Of a stretch of 64,000 nucleotides of DNA, positions 28,501 through 38,194 are shown in pieces. The DNA is taken from the IMG/VR virus record IMGVR_UViG_3300028394_003336. One strand, written 5' to 3'. Position numbers and translations under genes: made by a program. The first letter of the stretch is position 1; the number at the start of each line of letters is the position of its first letter. Origin of the DNA: a virus. The notes beneath the pieces were generated by a model. That model ran no database searches, had not been told where the DNA came from, and saw nothing but the letters and a program-made list of their open reading frames with translations.

Positions 28501-30177
28501 TTATGACTCTTTACGAAGGTCTCCGCTATAATGTTCAAATCTATTGTGCTCAGTTGGTGTTGCCAACAATAAACCAGGATAAAGTTCATCCTTTTTTATT
28601 AGTTGATACATATGACTCATCCATGTTTGTTCAAACGGATGTGCCCATGTTACATCTAAGAACATTTTTTTATTTCCTGGTCTGCTAACAAGTTGAGGCC
28701 AATTACAATAATAAACATCACCCATAGTATATGGTAATCCTTTATGACTTAAAACATGAGTATATACTGATTTCGGTGCATTTGGGTCTAATCCTTGAAC
28801 AGGTAATCTGTTTTTACCTGGCCAAAATTGTTCTCTAACACTTTGTGGTACGTTATACCAAGCCCATTGAGTTCCGTTATCACCATAAAATTCTGAATAG
28901 TTAAGTTTCAAGAAATCAAAGTTTTCTTTCTTCATAACTTCTAATGACTTTGTATAAAGATTTGGGATGTATCTATTAAATCCATTTCTACATACTTGAC
29001 CCTCATTTGGGAAAAAGAACATATCATCTTCAAAAAATAAGTAATAATCTAAATCAGTAGTATCAAAGTGCTCTGCAATAAATTGTCTTCCACCACATAT
29101 ACCTAAATTATCCTTCTTTATATGTGTAAAATTATGTTCTTCACAAAGTGACGCATATTCATCAAAAGTTGATTCATCAGAAGAGTTGTCTAATAAAAAC
29201 TTTTTAGTCTTAAGTAAGTAATCTTTATCGTATTCAGTCATTGATTTAATCAACGTTCTGAATTGATTTGGACTATTAAAAGTAATAACATATAATCCAA
29301 CTTTAGATGTGTCTAAGTTATTAACAGATTCAATAACTTTAGCTTCATTCTTAATCTTTAAATTATCATTCTTTAAGTCCTCAAAGAATTTTCCAACTAA
29401 TCCATTCCCCTCAATTTCAAAATAATTTATTAAATCAGAATGTTTGTAGCACATAATACTGAAAATAGACTCTTCAGTACCCATATAACCTTCTTCTAAG
29501 GTTGTTTTTAACAATGAATAATAAATTCCATTAATATCACCAATAGAGTCTTTAGGTCCACCAAAAAACCCACCTCTAGCAACTTTATTTACCTTATCAC
29601 CAGCAATTGAATTTAATTTATTATATTCAAACCCATGAATTTCAGTTTCAGCATCATAAGGAAAACAAATGAATGAAAACTTAGAAATATATTTCGGTAG
29701 TTTATCTAAAACTTTATCGTGTGTAAAATAACCAGGATGAACAGTATTTGTTAATCCACCATCAATCCAAAAAAGATATTCTGAATTAAATTGGTCCATA
29801 ATCTTAGCATCATTTAATAAAAATACTTTAGACATAACCAATGGATTATAGTTTTCTAATCTGGCTTGTGTTGAATCTTTTAGCCAACCAGATAAATTAG
29901 ACCAACTTTCGTTAGCTCTAATCTTTTGAATCATGTCAAAAAATTCATTTTCTCTAAACCAACTCAAAGGTCTTGTAATGAATTGAGTATTATCCTTTGA
30001 CCTTCTTTCAAAAACAAAATCTCTAAGTTCTTCATCACCAAAAATAATCATATTGGCATCAACACCTAATAATGAACTAAATTTGTCCAAATAATGTTGA
30101 TAAGTTCTTGACCATCCTTCAGTTAGTTCATCTCTACCGATGTTCCATATTCCTGTTACTAATGTTATCTTACTCAT
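28501..30177 (-). CDS. HtrL/YibB (WlaTC)-like glycosyltransferase fused to a GT2-like domain
   Basis: ITLVTGIWNIGR, WIDGG, GGFFGG, TEE in the N-half; VITFN, LLDNSS, NLGICGGR, FFEDD in the C-half. Confidence 0.7.
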   Translation of the reverse strand: MSKITLVTGIWNIGRDELTEGWSRTYQHYLDKFSSLLGVDANMIIFGDEELRDFVFERRSKDNTQFITRPLSWFRENEFFDMIQKIRANESWSNLSGWLKDSTQARLENYNPLVMSKVFLLNDAKIMDQFNSEYLFWIDGGLTNTVHPGYFTHDKVLDKLPKYISKFSFICFPYDAETEIHGFEYNKLNSIAGDKVNKVARGGFFGGPKDSIGDINGIYYSLLKTTLEEGYMGTEESIFSIMCYKHSDLINYFEIEGNGLVGKFFEDLKNDNLKIKNEAKVIESVNNLDTSKVGLYVITFNSPNQFRTLIKSMTEYDKDYLLKTKKFLLDNSSDESTFDEYASLCEEHNFTHIKKDNLGICGGRQFIAEHFDTTDLDYYLFFEDDMFFFPNEGQVCRNGFNRYIPNLYTKSLEVMKKENFDFLKLNYSEFYGDNGTQWAWYNVPQSVREQFWPGKNRLPVQGLDPNAPKSVYTHVLSHKGLPYTMGDVYYCNWPQLVSRPGNKKMFLDVTWAHPFEQTWMSHMYQLIKKDELYPGLLLATPTEHNRFEHYSGDLRKES

Positions 30178-31054
30178 AAATTCTATTAAATTCTTCTAAT
30201 ATTTTAAAAAAGCTTTTATTTTTTTGGAACAACTCATCTGTTGTTCCTTGAGGTGCATTATCTCTACACCACCATATATCAAAATGTTTTCTGTAAAATA
30301 AATCTTGATGGTTAAAGTACATCAAAGTCATAATTTGTTCTTCATGTGGTAACCCATTATCACTACCCAAAACACTTTGAGCATAGTTTTCAAAAGTTGT
30401 TACTATATTGTCCCACTTATCTCTATGACCCCCAAACATTCCACCTATAATATGAATACTTCTATCATAGTTAACATACCATTTTGGGTCTACAGTTCCT
30501 GACCAATAATTTCTATCATTTTCTTTACCAAATAACAAAAATTTATCTCCTGTGTCTTCAATAACATTTTTTAAGAAATTATTATTAAAAAGATGACTCT
30601 CATAAAACCTTCTCATTGAATGATGTTGTTCGTCAAGATATTTTAAAGGAATAAGCCCACAATGAGATAATCCCGCATCAACCCAATAATAGTTGTCATA
30701 TGATTTATCTTCATTCCACCACCAACTAAATTTTGAATATTGAATTTCAATACATCTATCTCCTCTCTTAATGTCATCAACATTCTTCCTTGAATTAATT
30801 AAATCTTTAAACTTACAATTCTCAAGGTCAAAAACTTGGAATTTTAATTGATTCTCAGATATCTTATATTCAGAATAAAAAAATTCTTTTAAAGATTCAA
30901 TTTCTCTGTCTGATGTATAACAAAGAAAATCGGCATCTGTCATTTTAAGTAATGAAAGAAGACTAAATCTGTAATGAGAACCCCTATTAGGTCTACCACC
31001 TAATTCTGTTCCGTTTAAATCACTATAAATTGCAGTAATAATTTTAGTTGACAT
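30170..31054 (-). CDS. HtrL/YibB-like glycosyltransferase
   Basis: IITAIY, YSKF, YWVDAG, IIGGMFGG, EEQIM; paralogous to the N-half of the next gene. Confidence 0.65.
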   Translation of the reverse strand: MSTKIITAIYSDLNGTELGGRPNRGSHYRFSLLSLLKMTDADFLCYTSDREIESLKEFFYSEYKISENQLKFQVFDLENCKFKDLINSRKNVDDIKRGDRCIEIQYSKFSWWWNEDKSYDNYYWVDAGLSHCGLIPLKYLDEQHHSMRRFYESHLFNNNFLKNVIEDTGDKFLLFGKENDRNYWSGTVDPKWYVNYDRSIHIIGGMFGGHRDKWDNIVTTFENYAQSVLGSDNGLPHEEQIMTLMYFNHQDLFYRKHFDIWWCRDNAPQGTTDELFQKNKSFFKILEEFNRIYE

Positions 31055-36176: not shown

Positions 36177-36187
36177 TTGAATTAAGT

Positions 36188-38194
36188 TTAAATTGGAGTT
36201 ACTGTTGGTGTTATTGTTGGAGTTGGTGTTGGGCAATTATACAGTTCATACCCCAAATCATTACAAGGTAGTGATAGGTATATTAAATCATTACAAGGTA
36301 ATGTAACATAGTATAAGTCATTATTAGGTATTACAATTCTACAGTTAGGACAATCAGGGTCTAATAATCCATATCTATTTTTAAGAATTCTGAAGTTATG
36401 TTTAATTTGAGATGCGTTAAGTGGTTCGAGATACATTCTAAAAGCACTAACGTCACCAATTAAACTTCCACCAAAAATTCCTTCAAGTTCTATATTTGTG
36501 GTTAATCCCGAATAAATTGTGTGGTCTAAATCATATGTTGTTAAACATTCTGGGTCTTGTTGATATACAATATCATCAACGGTCTCAGGACATCCTCCTG
36601 AAAAAGTTAAATTGTCATGTAAACCTTGTGTACCACCACCAACCGAAATATTATACCCAACACCAATTTGTCTTTCTTTTGGTGTGTTTAATAGTCTTGG
36701 TATAATCTCCTCAAAATCTTCCGCAACCATGAATAATCTACCGTTAACATAAAACTTCAATGTACCCAATCTATACTTTTCTTCTTCCGTCCACATGTCG
36801 TTAAACTTAACAACTTCTGTTGTTGCTGGGTCGTAAGGTTGTTCGTGTGTTAATGGAGGTTCAATAAGACTCACGCTATTATTTGCAGGTGTTGCTGTGA
36901 AAATTGTATCAACAATTAATCCTAACCCGCCTTTTTCATATAAATCACAAGTATCTAACCATTTGTTTCTTTGGAATACCGCATCAATCTGAACCCAATG
37001 TTCAACATTTGGATATGTTGTTTGAATACAATCGTGGAAAATTCCTCTTGTTGAGCACCACTCACTTATTGTAACGCCTGTTTGATAAGTTAAACCTGTA
37101 AGACAAGTTCCTGAATGTTCACAATGTCCTGTGATTCTATAAGTCTTAACACATAATCTTGGGTTTCCTGTATCACCACTCAATCTTAATGAAAGGGCGT
37201 TTGAAACATCGTCATATAATGGGTCGGTTTCAGGATATTTTACAGTAACAGTACAATTACAAGGACATCCACAATTGCAATTAGTAGATGTTCCACCTGA
37301 TTGTTGGTAAACATGTATACAACTATGTTCAGCTGTCTTACCTGTTTGTTGACACTCACAGGTGTGCATACAAGTTAAACCCGAAGTTACTCTTGTATAT
37401 CCTGTATCTTGTTTTGGACTTCCATCGGGATAATGGTAGAATTTATTCTCAGCTCTGGCCCCCATGTAAAAGAAGGTTCCTTTATTATTTGGGTATCTTT
37501 TATTTAATCCTGTATCAGTATTTCCTGTCCATCTATACTTCAACATGAATTCTGCTGTCCAGCCTAAAGAAACTCTCTGAGGAAAAACTTGATAATCATA
37601 TCCTGGTATTTTATAAAACCCTTGGAAAAATCCTCCGTTAAGTCTTGCAAAATACCCAACAGAATCCCCATTTGTTTGATAATTTAAATTATATGTGTAT
37701 GAGTCATCGTTCCATAATCTATTTGATGATGTTGTAAAACCTGTGATAGGGTGCATTTTCATTCTCCTATCGTATTTGTATCTACTGTAAGTGTCGGCTG
37801 AAGATGTATATAAACCTGTTGTAATTTCAATGGTTTCACCAGACATTTTTTTAGTCAATCCGTTATCAATACCTGTCAAACCAACATCACATAATTCAGT
37901 TACAACAGGACAAAAATTAGGGTCAACATAGTCTGGATTCCAATAATTTTCAGAAACAATAACATCATTATCAAAACTACAAGAATTGGTTTGACAAATT
38001 GTTGTTGCAGAATTATTGAAGTCAAATTTGAATGGCATTCTATTTCCATCATCTTCACCAATTAAAAATGGAGAAAATACAACCTCTTGGTCATAATCTT
38101 TTTCGTCTGATGCAAGGCAAATGTCCGTTATTTCATTAAACGGAATTATTCCCCATCTCCTAAAATTATATTGATTAATGTTTTGGTATGCCAT
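36188..38194 (-). CDS. Cys-rich LamG/concanavalin A-like domain protein with PT tail
   Basis: WTAEFMLK, WVQIDAVF, LKFYVNG, GDVSAFRMYLEPLNASQI; C-terminal PxNDL x3 followed by PTPTPTITPTVTP. Confidence 0.65.
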   Translation of the reverse strand: MAYQNINQYNFRRWGIIPFNEITDICLASDEKDYDQEVVFSPFLIGEDDGNRMPFKFDFNNSATTICQTNSCSFDNDVIVSENYWNPDYVDPNFCPVVTELCDVGLTGIDNGLTKKMSGETIEITTGLYTSSADTYSRYKYDRRMKMHPITGFTTSSNRLWNDDSYTYNLNYQTNGDSVGYFARLNGGFFQGFYKIPGYDYQVFPQRVSLGWTAEFMLKYRWTGNTDTGLNKRYPNNKGTFFYMGARAENKFYHYPDGSPKQDTGYTRVTSGLTCMHTCECQQTGKTAEHSCIHVYQQSGGTSTNCNCGCPCNCTVTVKYPETDPLYDDVSNALSLRLSGDTGNPRLCVKTYRITGHCEHSGTCLTGLTYQTGVTISEWCSTRGIFHDCIQTTYPNVEHWVQIDAVFQRNKWLDTCDLYEKGGLGLIVDTIFTATPANNSVSLIEPPLTHEQPYDPATTEVVKFNDMWTEEEKYRLGTLKFYVNGRLFMVAEDFEEIIPRLLNTPKERQIGVGYNISVGGGTQGLHDNLTFSGGCPETVDDIVYQQDPECLTTYDLDHTIYSGLTTNIELEGIFGGSLIGDVSAFRMYLEPLNASQIKHNFRILKNRYGLLDPDCPNCRIVIPNNDLYYVTLPCNDLIYLSLPCNDLGYELYNCPTPTPTITPTVTPI

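Follow-up and report, generated by a model that had tools for sequence, protein, structure and literature searches.

The window analysed here is a 64-kb stretch (64,000 nucleotides) of the IMG/VR virus record IMGVR_UViG_3300028394_003336, and the system in question lies on its minus strand, where four genes for proteins with long Thr/Pro tracts are followed by an operon that begins with a gene for a glycosyltransferase (GT) of family GT60. The source of the window is an uncultured jumbo phage with a contractile tail and a GC content of ~31%, and a T4-type baseplate protein, tail tube, sheath, family-B DNA polymerase, SNF2 helicase, PhoH, and dUTPase were identified among its gene products. A megablast search of the region yielded no match among GenBank phages, and the DNA polymerase (PolB) has only remote matches. 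IMG/VR contains hundreds of close relatives, some of them represented by complete genomes of 321-326 kb; the genome-wide statements made below are based on two complete relatives, G001 and G002. In the direction of transcription, the order is p668, p205, p381, p414, a terminator, GT60, GT25, p294, p558, p160, and then the polymerase gene. The four co-oriented Pro/Thr-tract genes and the GT genes following them, reported in a preliminary description of this DNA, are all present on the minus strand. The features are listed below (aa, amino acids).

36188-38194, minus: p668, 668 aa, Cys-rich, with C-terminal PTPTPTITPTVTP, a short Thr/Pro tail
35619-36236 as listed, minus: p205; the ATG at 36176 is the likely start (35619-36176, 185 aa)
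34443-35588, minus: p381, consisting of an N-domain, a 95-residue Thr/Pro/Ser linker, domain A, a linker, and domain B
33131-34375, minus: p414, consisting of an N-domain, a Thr/Pro/Gln linker, domain A, a linker, domain B, and a C-terminal Thr/Pro tail
33081-33108, minus: terminator-like hairpin (intrinsic type) of 12 pairs plus a T-run, between p414 and GT60
31787-33055, minus: GT60, 422 aa
31044-31787, minus: GT25, 247 aa, its start overlapping the GT60 stop (ATGA)
30170-31054, minus: p294, a conserved partner enzyme, weakly HtrL-like
28501-30177, minus: p558, an N-terminal HtrL_YibB domain plus a second, C-terminal domain
28107-28484, minus: p160, 125 aa from the ATG at 28484, the final gene of the GT operon

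The assignment of 31787-33055 to GT60, proposed in the preliminary description, was confirmed by profile and structure searches. The protein matched Pfam PF11397 (GlcNAc) with 218.4 bits (cut-off, 21; E-value, 2.5e-64) and phrog_24687 of the PHROG database at 5e-164, and PF11397 is annotated on all 120 of its close homologues. An AlphaFold (AF2) model based on an alignment of 41 diverse homologues reached a predicted local distance difference test score (pLDDT) of 94.6, and the top 44 Foldseek matches and the top 29 VIA-align entries for this model are all polypeptide N-acetylgalactosamine (GalNAc) transferases. The alignments with these ppGalNAc-transferases gave Z-scores of 18.9-22.6 and root mean square deviations of 3.1-5.4 Å (mostly 3.3-3.9) over 254-314 residues (typically ~270), as compared with Z-scores of at most 17 for other GT-A families. 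The ppGalNAc-T-like GT-A catalytic domain spans residues 1 to ~330 and is followed by a beta-rich C-terminal domain (~330 to 415), which matched no fold in the structure searches; a sequence search of the PDB with GT60 and p668 gave nothing useful. D93-S-H95, E206, R212, and H230 are invariant in the 41 sequences, down to 34% identity, and the D-x-H motif and the distal His are predicted to form the metal-UDP-sugar site. Golgi members of the family are held in the membrane by a type II anchor, which is absent from this protein; its chain opens directly with the first beta strand. As a soluble enzyme without an anchor, it therefore fits the cytoplasmic, Gnt1-like subtype and not the Golgi subtype; Gnt1, studied by the West laboratory, is reportedly a soluble cytoplasmic enzyme that acts on Skp1-Hyp (Hyp, hydroxyproline). 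In metagenomes, we found >6,700 close GT60 proteins, and the family as a whole formed 4,446 clusters at 50% identity. In the literature, GT60 in phages was found only as a listing as an auxiliary gene. Thr/Pro tracts inside GT60 proteins are rare (2 of 150), and an argument from enzyme-substrate fusion is therefore unusable.

A scan of all open reading frames (ORFs) of ≥60 aa in the window showed that long Thr/Pro tracts are confined, within the 64 kb, to p668, p205, p381, and p414, plus one 12-residue C-terminal tail elsewhere. This tail is found in a 141-aa protein with a weak WYL-domain match (39838-40263, plus strand), whose final residues are TPTPTTTPTQQT. The paralogous proteins p381 and p414 consist of linker for ~40% of their length, and Thr accounts for 23-26% of their residues (26% in p414) versus 6.3% for the remaining window proteins. 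Cys is also enriched in all four Thr/Pro proteins (2-4% versus a background of 0.7%, or 3- to 6-fold). Some of the tracts are TQTQ or TS-rich and contain no Pro. No membrane segment or signal peptide was detected by hydropathy in the nine proteins from p668 to p160 (maximum 19-residue Kyte-Doolittle mean, ≤1.33), in agreement with the earlier statement that the Thr/Pro proteins lack signal peptides.

The architecture of these proteins is modular. In p205, an all-beta, anchor-like N-terminal domain is joined by a 35-residue Thr/Pro linker to a C-terminal A-like domain, and conserved Cys pairs are present. In the AF2 model of this protein (pLDDT, 73.5), two small folded domains are separated by a linker with a pLDDT of ~40, indicating disorder. 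A fold search of the model against PDB, BFVD, and the ESM Atlas gave no match to a solved fold; the models most similar to it come from uncharacterised phage proteins and in some cases lie within collagen-repeat or Ig-repeat proteins. A language-model atlas search with p668 and p414 returned hypothetical phage proteins and a single LamG_3 lead, for p668. This protein is probably ConA/LamG-like, the LamG_3 link being a language-model lead only. The PHROG matches of p381 and p414 to phrog_15511 (the family of ORF232-237 of phage XacN1) fall in the low-complexity linker and were rejected as evidence of homology. p668 and the three N-domains retain 41-89% identity across 80 relatives, and the number, order, and spacing of the A and B domains and the lengths of the linkers change freely; p668 homologues extend to 1786 aa by the addition of Thr/Pro linkers and B domains. 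Conserved N-domains combined with variable distal parts are the layout expected of appendages and would fit a location on the virion. Indirect hints of such a location are the upstream motif shared with tail genes (see below), the conserved Cys pairs, and the tail-fibre neighbour of GT60 in contig L094.

The association of GT60 with Thr/Pro proteins extends far beyond the close relatives. The order p668, variable Thr/Pro array, GT60-GT25-p294-p558-p160 is kept in all of the 80 close IMG/VR relatives (80/80). In a sister clade (GT60 identity, 68-71%), Thr/Pro ORFs lie directly upstream, and the p160 homologue inside the operon gains 111 Thr/Pro residues. In contig L094 (43%), two tandem GT60 genes are preceded by genes for a LamG_3 protein, a Peptidase_S74 tail fibre, and a 652-aa protein that contains a Thr/Pro/Val/Ser tract of ~150 residues; a search of viral contigs with the L094 enzyme as the seed gave no result. 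In a second large clade, of the G017 type (36%), a Thr/Pro ORF is present within 3 kb of GT60 in 45 of 60 loci, mostly at a distance of 27-983 nt. The 229-kb contig G017 itself contains only three Thr/Pro ORFs, two of which flank GT60, and a LamG_3 gene and a gene for an SprB-repeat protein with a (TP)n linker are found near GT60 in this clade. Bona fide LamG_3 proteins adjoin GT60 in two lineages other than that of the present phage. Four distant GT60 representatives were left out of this context comparison because their contigs are too short. The proposed co-occurrence of GT60 and Thr/Pro genes across related phages was thus borne out, the pairing being observed from 95% down to 36% GT60 identity.

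The relationship was also seen from the side of the tracts. When viral contigs of ≥40 kb were chosen solely for the presence of (TP)4T, 8 of 28 carried PF11397. Tracts of (TP)3T are numerous in the GT60-positive jumbo phages XacN1 (16), Xoo-sp13 (16), CM1 (6), G001 (3), and G002 (11), and are absent from the GT60-negative phages Atu_ph07, SCTP-2, RaK2, and phiKZ (0 each); a naive Fisher test on these five positive and four negative phages, whose lineages are not independent, gave p ~0.008. In the GT60-bearing phages examined, tracts are always present somewhere in the genome.

Two further arrangements were observed in this comparison. GT60 is tandemly duplicated in marine and other lineages (L093:296-2811 and L094:5578-8099), together with genes for an FkbM methyltransferase, a sulfotransferase-like protein, and HtrL; the duplicated copies may split initiating and follow-up roles. 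In two unrelated contigs (L095:747-1864 and L340:9212-9952), proteins with the PqqD domain, a recognition element of ribosomally synthesised and post-translationally modified peptides (RiPPs), are encoded directly beside GT60, and one of these proteins contains a Thr/Pro tract; a ScmC-like protein is also encoded beside GT60 in this set. The PqqD neighbours hint at peptide-directed recruitment.

GT60 relatives are also encoded at 563 bacterial loci. Of the 45 with full flanks, 13 have a Thr/Pro ORF within 3 kb, 9 have one at 3-6.5 kb, and 4 have one at 6.5-10 kb. In Ralstonia sp. 25C (L387:12270-15131), Paraburkholderia ferrariae (L406:15078-17573), and Achromobacter (L371:15052-17535), VgrG spikes of the type VI secretion system (T6SS) carry C-terminal (Thr-Pro) runs of ~50-60 repeats and are encoded 1-4 kb from GT60 homologues with 42-45% identity. 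Furthermore, a GT60+p558 pair (59-69% and 48-63% identity, respectively) is present in contigs of metagenome-assembled genomes (MAGs) of Saprospiraceae, Bacteroidia, and Lewinellaceae (L330, L329, and L333). L333 is a 610-kb contig with a GC content of 62% in the 21-kb stretch examined, and in L330, a Thr/Pro/Ser-rich protein with a C-terminal sorting domain of the type IX secretion system (T9SS) is encoded 313 nt from the pair. The occurrence of the pair in Bacteroidota contigs suggests that genes have been exchanged with this phylum and that the phage perhaps infects a member of it.

The partner enzymes are less uniformly assigned than GT60. GT25 matched PF01755 above the cut-off (39.1 bits versus 24), as the preliminary description would predict, with a partial match covering only profile positions 68-121 of 199 (54 positions). 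The two genes following it had been described as HtrL-like transferases. This holds for p558, which matched PF09612 (HtrL_YibB) with 65.4 bits (cut-off, 24.1) over profile positions 2-254 of 267; its score of 73 against an NCBIfam equivalog cut-off of 265 makes it a member of the HtrL_YibB family and not YibB itself. It does not hold in the same way for p294, which has no Pfam match even at an E-value of 1 and shares 31% identity with the HtrL domain of p558 across just 49 residues (pairwise E-value, 2e-4). The C-terminal half of p558 (28501-29340, minus strand) has no Pfam match and has a weak PHROG match to the T-even beta-glucosyl-HMC alpha-glucosyltransferase (HMC, hydroxymethylcytosine; E-value, 1e-4); it is probably a second GT-like domain. 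p558 accompanies GT60 both in phages and in Bacteroidota contigs. In addition, a second, larger glycan island of soluble enzymes is located at 40956-56818 on the plus strand of the window. It encodes GT1/GT4-like enzymes, a GT2_5+GT4 fusion, three GT2 enzymes, two FkbM methyltransferases, GT11 and GT10 fucosyltransferases, a TylF O-methyltransferase, DUF6165, and two short-chain dehydrogenase/reductase (SDR) family epimerases/reductases that weakly resemble GDP-fucose synthase. The island could elaborate the same glycans as the GT60 operon.

The genes from GT60 to p160 overlap or stand 16 nt apart and are therefore regarded as one translationally coupled operon. Upstream of three of the Thr/Pro genes, we found the motif TATTTAT, which they share with tail genes:

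38204-38210, minus: TATTTAT, 16 nt before the p668 start
35594-35600, minus: TATTTAT, 12 nt before the p381 start
34393-34399, minus: TATTTAT, 24 nt before the p414 start

The window contains 25 copies of this motif; in 14 cases, a correctly oriented gene starts no more than 60 nt downstream. Five of these genes belong to the tail block (those for the 1699-aa and 624-aa proteins, the tube, the sheath, and the 170-aa ORF at 19478-19990). The motif is also found before non-tail genes, namely those for a superoxide dismutase (SOD) fusion and GT11, and is therefore a phage promoter-like motif that is not specific to the tail; the earlier statement that three Thr/Pro genes share an upstream motif with the tail genes stands for p668, p381, and p414, but without this specificity. 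The SOD gene (22234-23772, plus strand) encodes an Fe/Mn enzyme with a C-terminal extension of ~270 residues that has no match. Moreover, an octamer resembling a T4 late promoter, TATAAATA, is present at 33108-33115 (minus strand), where it abuts the 5' arm of the terminator before GT60, and again at ~38224-38231 (minus strand), 37 nt before p668. Transcripts from these sites might skip past the hairpin.

Because the pairing of GT60 with Thr/Pro proteins recurs in distant phages and beside T6SS spikes, the phage probably sugar-coats its own appendage proteins. Specifically, we favour, with moderate confidence, a mucin-type O-glycosylation system that the phage encodes and that acts in the cytoplasm on the Thr/Pro linkers of modular proteins, which are probably carried on the virion; the interpretation given in the preliminary description is thereby supported in part. 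The tracts are mucin-like in that they are long and rich in Thr, Ser, and Pro, with the p205 linker disordered in the model, and no membrane anchor, flippase, or lipid-carrier enzyme was seen in the GT operon. Late in infection, before virions are assembled or while this is under way, GT60 would add the first N-acetylhexosamine (HexNAc) to Thr residues of the linkers, and possibly to Ser residues as well. By analogy with the protist GT60 enzymes, this sugar would most likely be alpha-linked N-acetylglucosamine (GlcNAc) derived from UDP-GlcNAc. GT25, p294, and p558 would then extend the glycan, and fucose and methylated sugars may be contributed by the enzymes of the island at 40956-56818. Once glycosylated, the linkers would become stiff, protease-resistant, hydrophilic stalks that hold the variable distal domains away from the particle, and the conserved N-domains would anchor each Thr/Pro protein to the virion. 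The roles put forward in the preliminary description, namely shielding, stiffening, and binding to Bacteroidota receptors, are speculative. The rapid variation of distal domains and linker lengths between relatives fits parts that face the host or the environment.

Several findings weigh against this interpretation. p668, p205, p381, and p414 have no structural match in Pfam or PHROG, and the folds of p205 match only uncharacterised phage proteins. The pairing is also incomplete: there is no Thr/Pro ORF within 3 kb of GT60 in 11 of the 60 second-clade loci and in 32 of the 45 bacterial loci, and eight other Thr/Pro ORFs in G002 are remote from GT60. The counts given above overstate the statistics because the compared lineages are not fully independent. 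To our knowledge, the chemistry (donor, acceptor residue, and product) has been reported for no phage or bacterial GT60.

The remaining opposing points also favour a different explanation, in which the tracts are plain, unglycosylated spacers and the GT operon targets host envelope glycans, such as the lipopolysaccharide or lipooligosaccharide (LPS/LOS) core or capsule, or another phage protein, such as the capsid; modification of envelope glycans would block superinfection or the trapping of progeny. A target of this kind keeps some plausibility because GT25 and HtrL_YibB are families known, and named, from LPS-core loci. The terminator found at 33081-33108, already noted in the preliminary description as lying between the presumed substrates and the enzymes, separates the two sets of genes, and the motif scan of the window found no TATTTAT upstream of the GT60 gene, so that its promoter context differs from that of the Thr/Pro genes. 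The caveat that the two sets are adjacent but perhaps not co-transcribed is softened by the presence of p160 inside the GT operon, because this protein has Thr/Pro-extended homologues in sister clades. In addition, six of seven complete Thr/Pro-bearing phage genomes lack GT60, indicating that the tracts do not require the enzyme, and in XacN1, the Thr/Pro array is ~90 kb from the cassette. However, the GT60 catalytic domain is clearly nearest to polypeptide-directed enzymes, Thr/Pro ORFs are adjacent to GT60 in at least four divergent phage lineages and at the (TP)n tails of VgrG, and the operon lacks the membrane anchor, flippase, and lipid-carrier enzyme mentioned above. We therefore consider the spacer explanation unlikely.

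A further alternative accepts glycosylation of the tracts but places it on Hyp instead of Thr: a 2-oxoglutarate-Fe(II) (2OG-Fe(II)) prolyl hydroxylase would act first, and a Gnt1-like GT60 would then generate (Thr-Hyp)n glycomodules similar to those of plant arabinogalactan proteins (AGPs). Consistent with this, GT60 is soluble like Gnt1, many tracts strictly alternate X-Pro, and G001 and G002 each encode three PF13640 oxygenases of the prolyl 4-hydroxylase (P4H) type (L085-L090). However, these oxygenases, whose family is widespread among aquatic phages, are encoded far from the cassette, and no PF13640-type oxygenase was found among the window ORFs scanned. Furthermore, Thr and not Pro is the most enriched residue, and some tracts, of the TQTQ or TS-rich kind, contain no Pro. 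Hydroxyproline is thus an improbable acceptor. Hypermodification of phage DNA against restriction, in which the GTs would act on hydroxymethyl bases as phage GT arrays often do (cited in PMC12619734) and to which the weak alpha-glucosyltransferase match of the C-terminal half of p558 might point, is very improbable and was set aside because the sole thymidylate-synthase homologue in the complete relatives is a canonical ThyA (TIGR03284, 311 bits; cut-off, 108; best PDB matches, ThyA), with no hydroxymethylase seen and the GT60 fold matching polypeptide transferases.

The mucin-type glycosylation of appendage linkers proposed here is most likely a variation on the virion glycosylation already known from phages, with GT60 in a new setting. 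To date, the demonstrated cases come from mycobacteriophages, to which XacN1 adds Schiff-stained virion glycoproteins that are not assigned to proteins. If the proposal is correct, a different chemistry, namely a mucin-type start by GT60 on internal Thr/Pro linkers, would operate in very abundant environmental jumbo phages, and the bacterial and phage branch of PF11397 would gain its first candidate function and substrate class. It would also account for the Thr/Pro linkers that travel with GT60 in phages and at T6SS spikes, and would make glycan coats a factor in phage stability, adsorption, and recognition. A broader version, which we put forward only tentatively, is that contractile injection machines commonly have their appendages modified, in a way so far overlooked, by soluble GT60 enzymes; cytoplasmic, mucin-type O-glycosylation would take place before assembly on the (Thr-Pro)n stalks of jumbo-phage fibre or decoration proteins and of T6SS VgrG spikes. 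It would follow that the ~16-kb island of fucosyl- and methyltransferases in this phage elaborates the glycan into a viral glycocalyx.

A close known counterpart is phage XacN1, which encodes homologues of GT60, p294, and p558 (ORF334, ORF332, and ORF330; 46, 31, and 41% identity) and an array of Thr/Pro-linker proteins. The array, ORF232-237 (phrog_15511; L091, 124048-133104), comprises six tandem paralogues in which a 200-aa N-domain is conserved and a Thr/Pro linker of ~100 residues leads to C-domains unrelated to one another. XacN1 differs from the present phage in that its cassette includes a carbamoyltransferase and does not adjoin the array. XacN1 virions contain at least two Schiff-positive glycoproteins, which the authors credited to phage glycosyltransferases including ORF334; the GT family of ORF334 was not named, the Thr/Pro tracts were not linked to it, and the Schiff bands were not assigned to proteins (PMC5852040). 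In the same report, tail-fibre homologues were not found (PMC5852040), and ORF232-237 may be the missing fibres.

The GT60 enzymes of protists (TcOGNT1/2 of Trypanosoma cruzi, the Golgi pp-alphaGlcNAcT of Dictyostelium, and Gnt1) share PF11397 and the D-x-H...H set with the phage enzyme. TcOGNT1 makes GlcNAc-alpha-1-O-Thr on mucin-like proteins, and the mucins of T. cruzi resemble the candidate phage acceptors in their Thr/Pro-rich, mucin-like tracts (PMC9472816). The phage GT60 is soluble like Gnt1 and has no type II anchor; it differs further from the protist enzymes in its extra C-terminal beta domain and in being encoded in an operon with GT25 and HtrL-type enzymes. The GT27 ppGalNAc-transferases of animals and Toxoplasma provide the nearest solved structures, with the GT-A fold, D-x-H, and distal His in common. 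GT27 enzymes start clustered O-glycans on Thr/Pro-rich mucin domains. The phage GT60 shares only 10-15% identity with them, has no recognised ricin-type lectin domain, and is predicted to be cytoplasmic and not Golgi-localised.

Mycobacteriophage GTs modify the structural proteins of their own virions, and the acceptors are the C-terminal ends of capsid and tail-tube subunits (Freeman et al. 2023, as cited in PMC12619734). The two systems would be alike in their phage-encoded GTs, cytoplasmic setting, and own-protein targets, which are putative in the present phage; they differ in the use of GT60 versus other GT families and in the candidate acceptors, which are internal Thr/Pro linkers of modular accessory proteins in the present phage. 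Finally, giant viruses (PBCV-1, mimivirus with its fibrils, and PkV RF01) differ in having eukaryotic hosts and, in PBCV-1, glycans N-linked to the capsid protein. Like this phage, they possess sets of soluble GTs with nearby genes for fucose and methylated sugars, and the link between GT25 and GT60 is also found there, as a GT25+GT60 fusion encoded by PkV RF01 (bioRxiv 10.1101/2020.07.30.228163).

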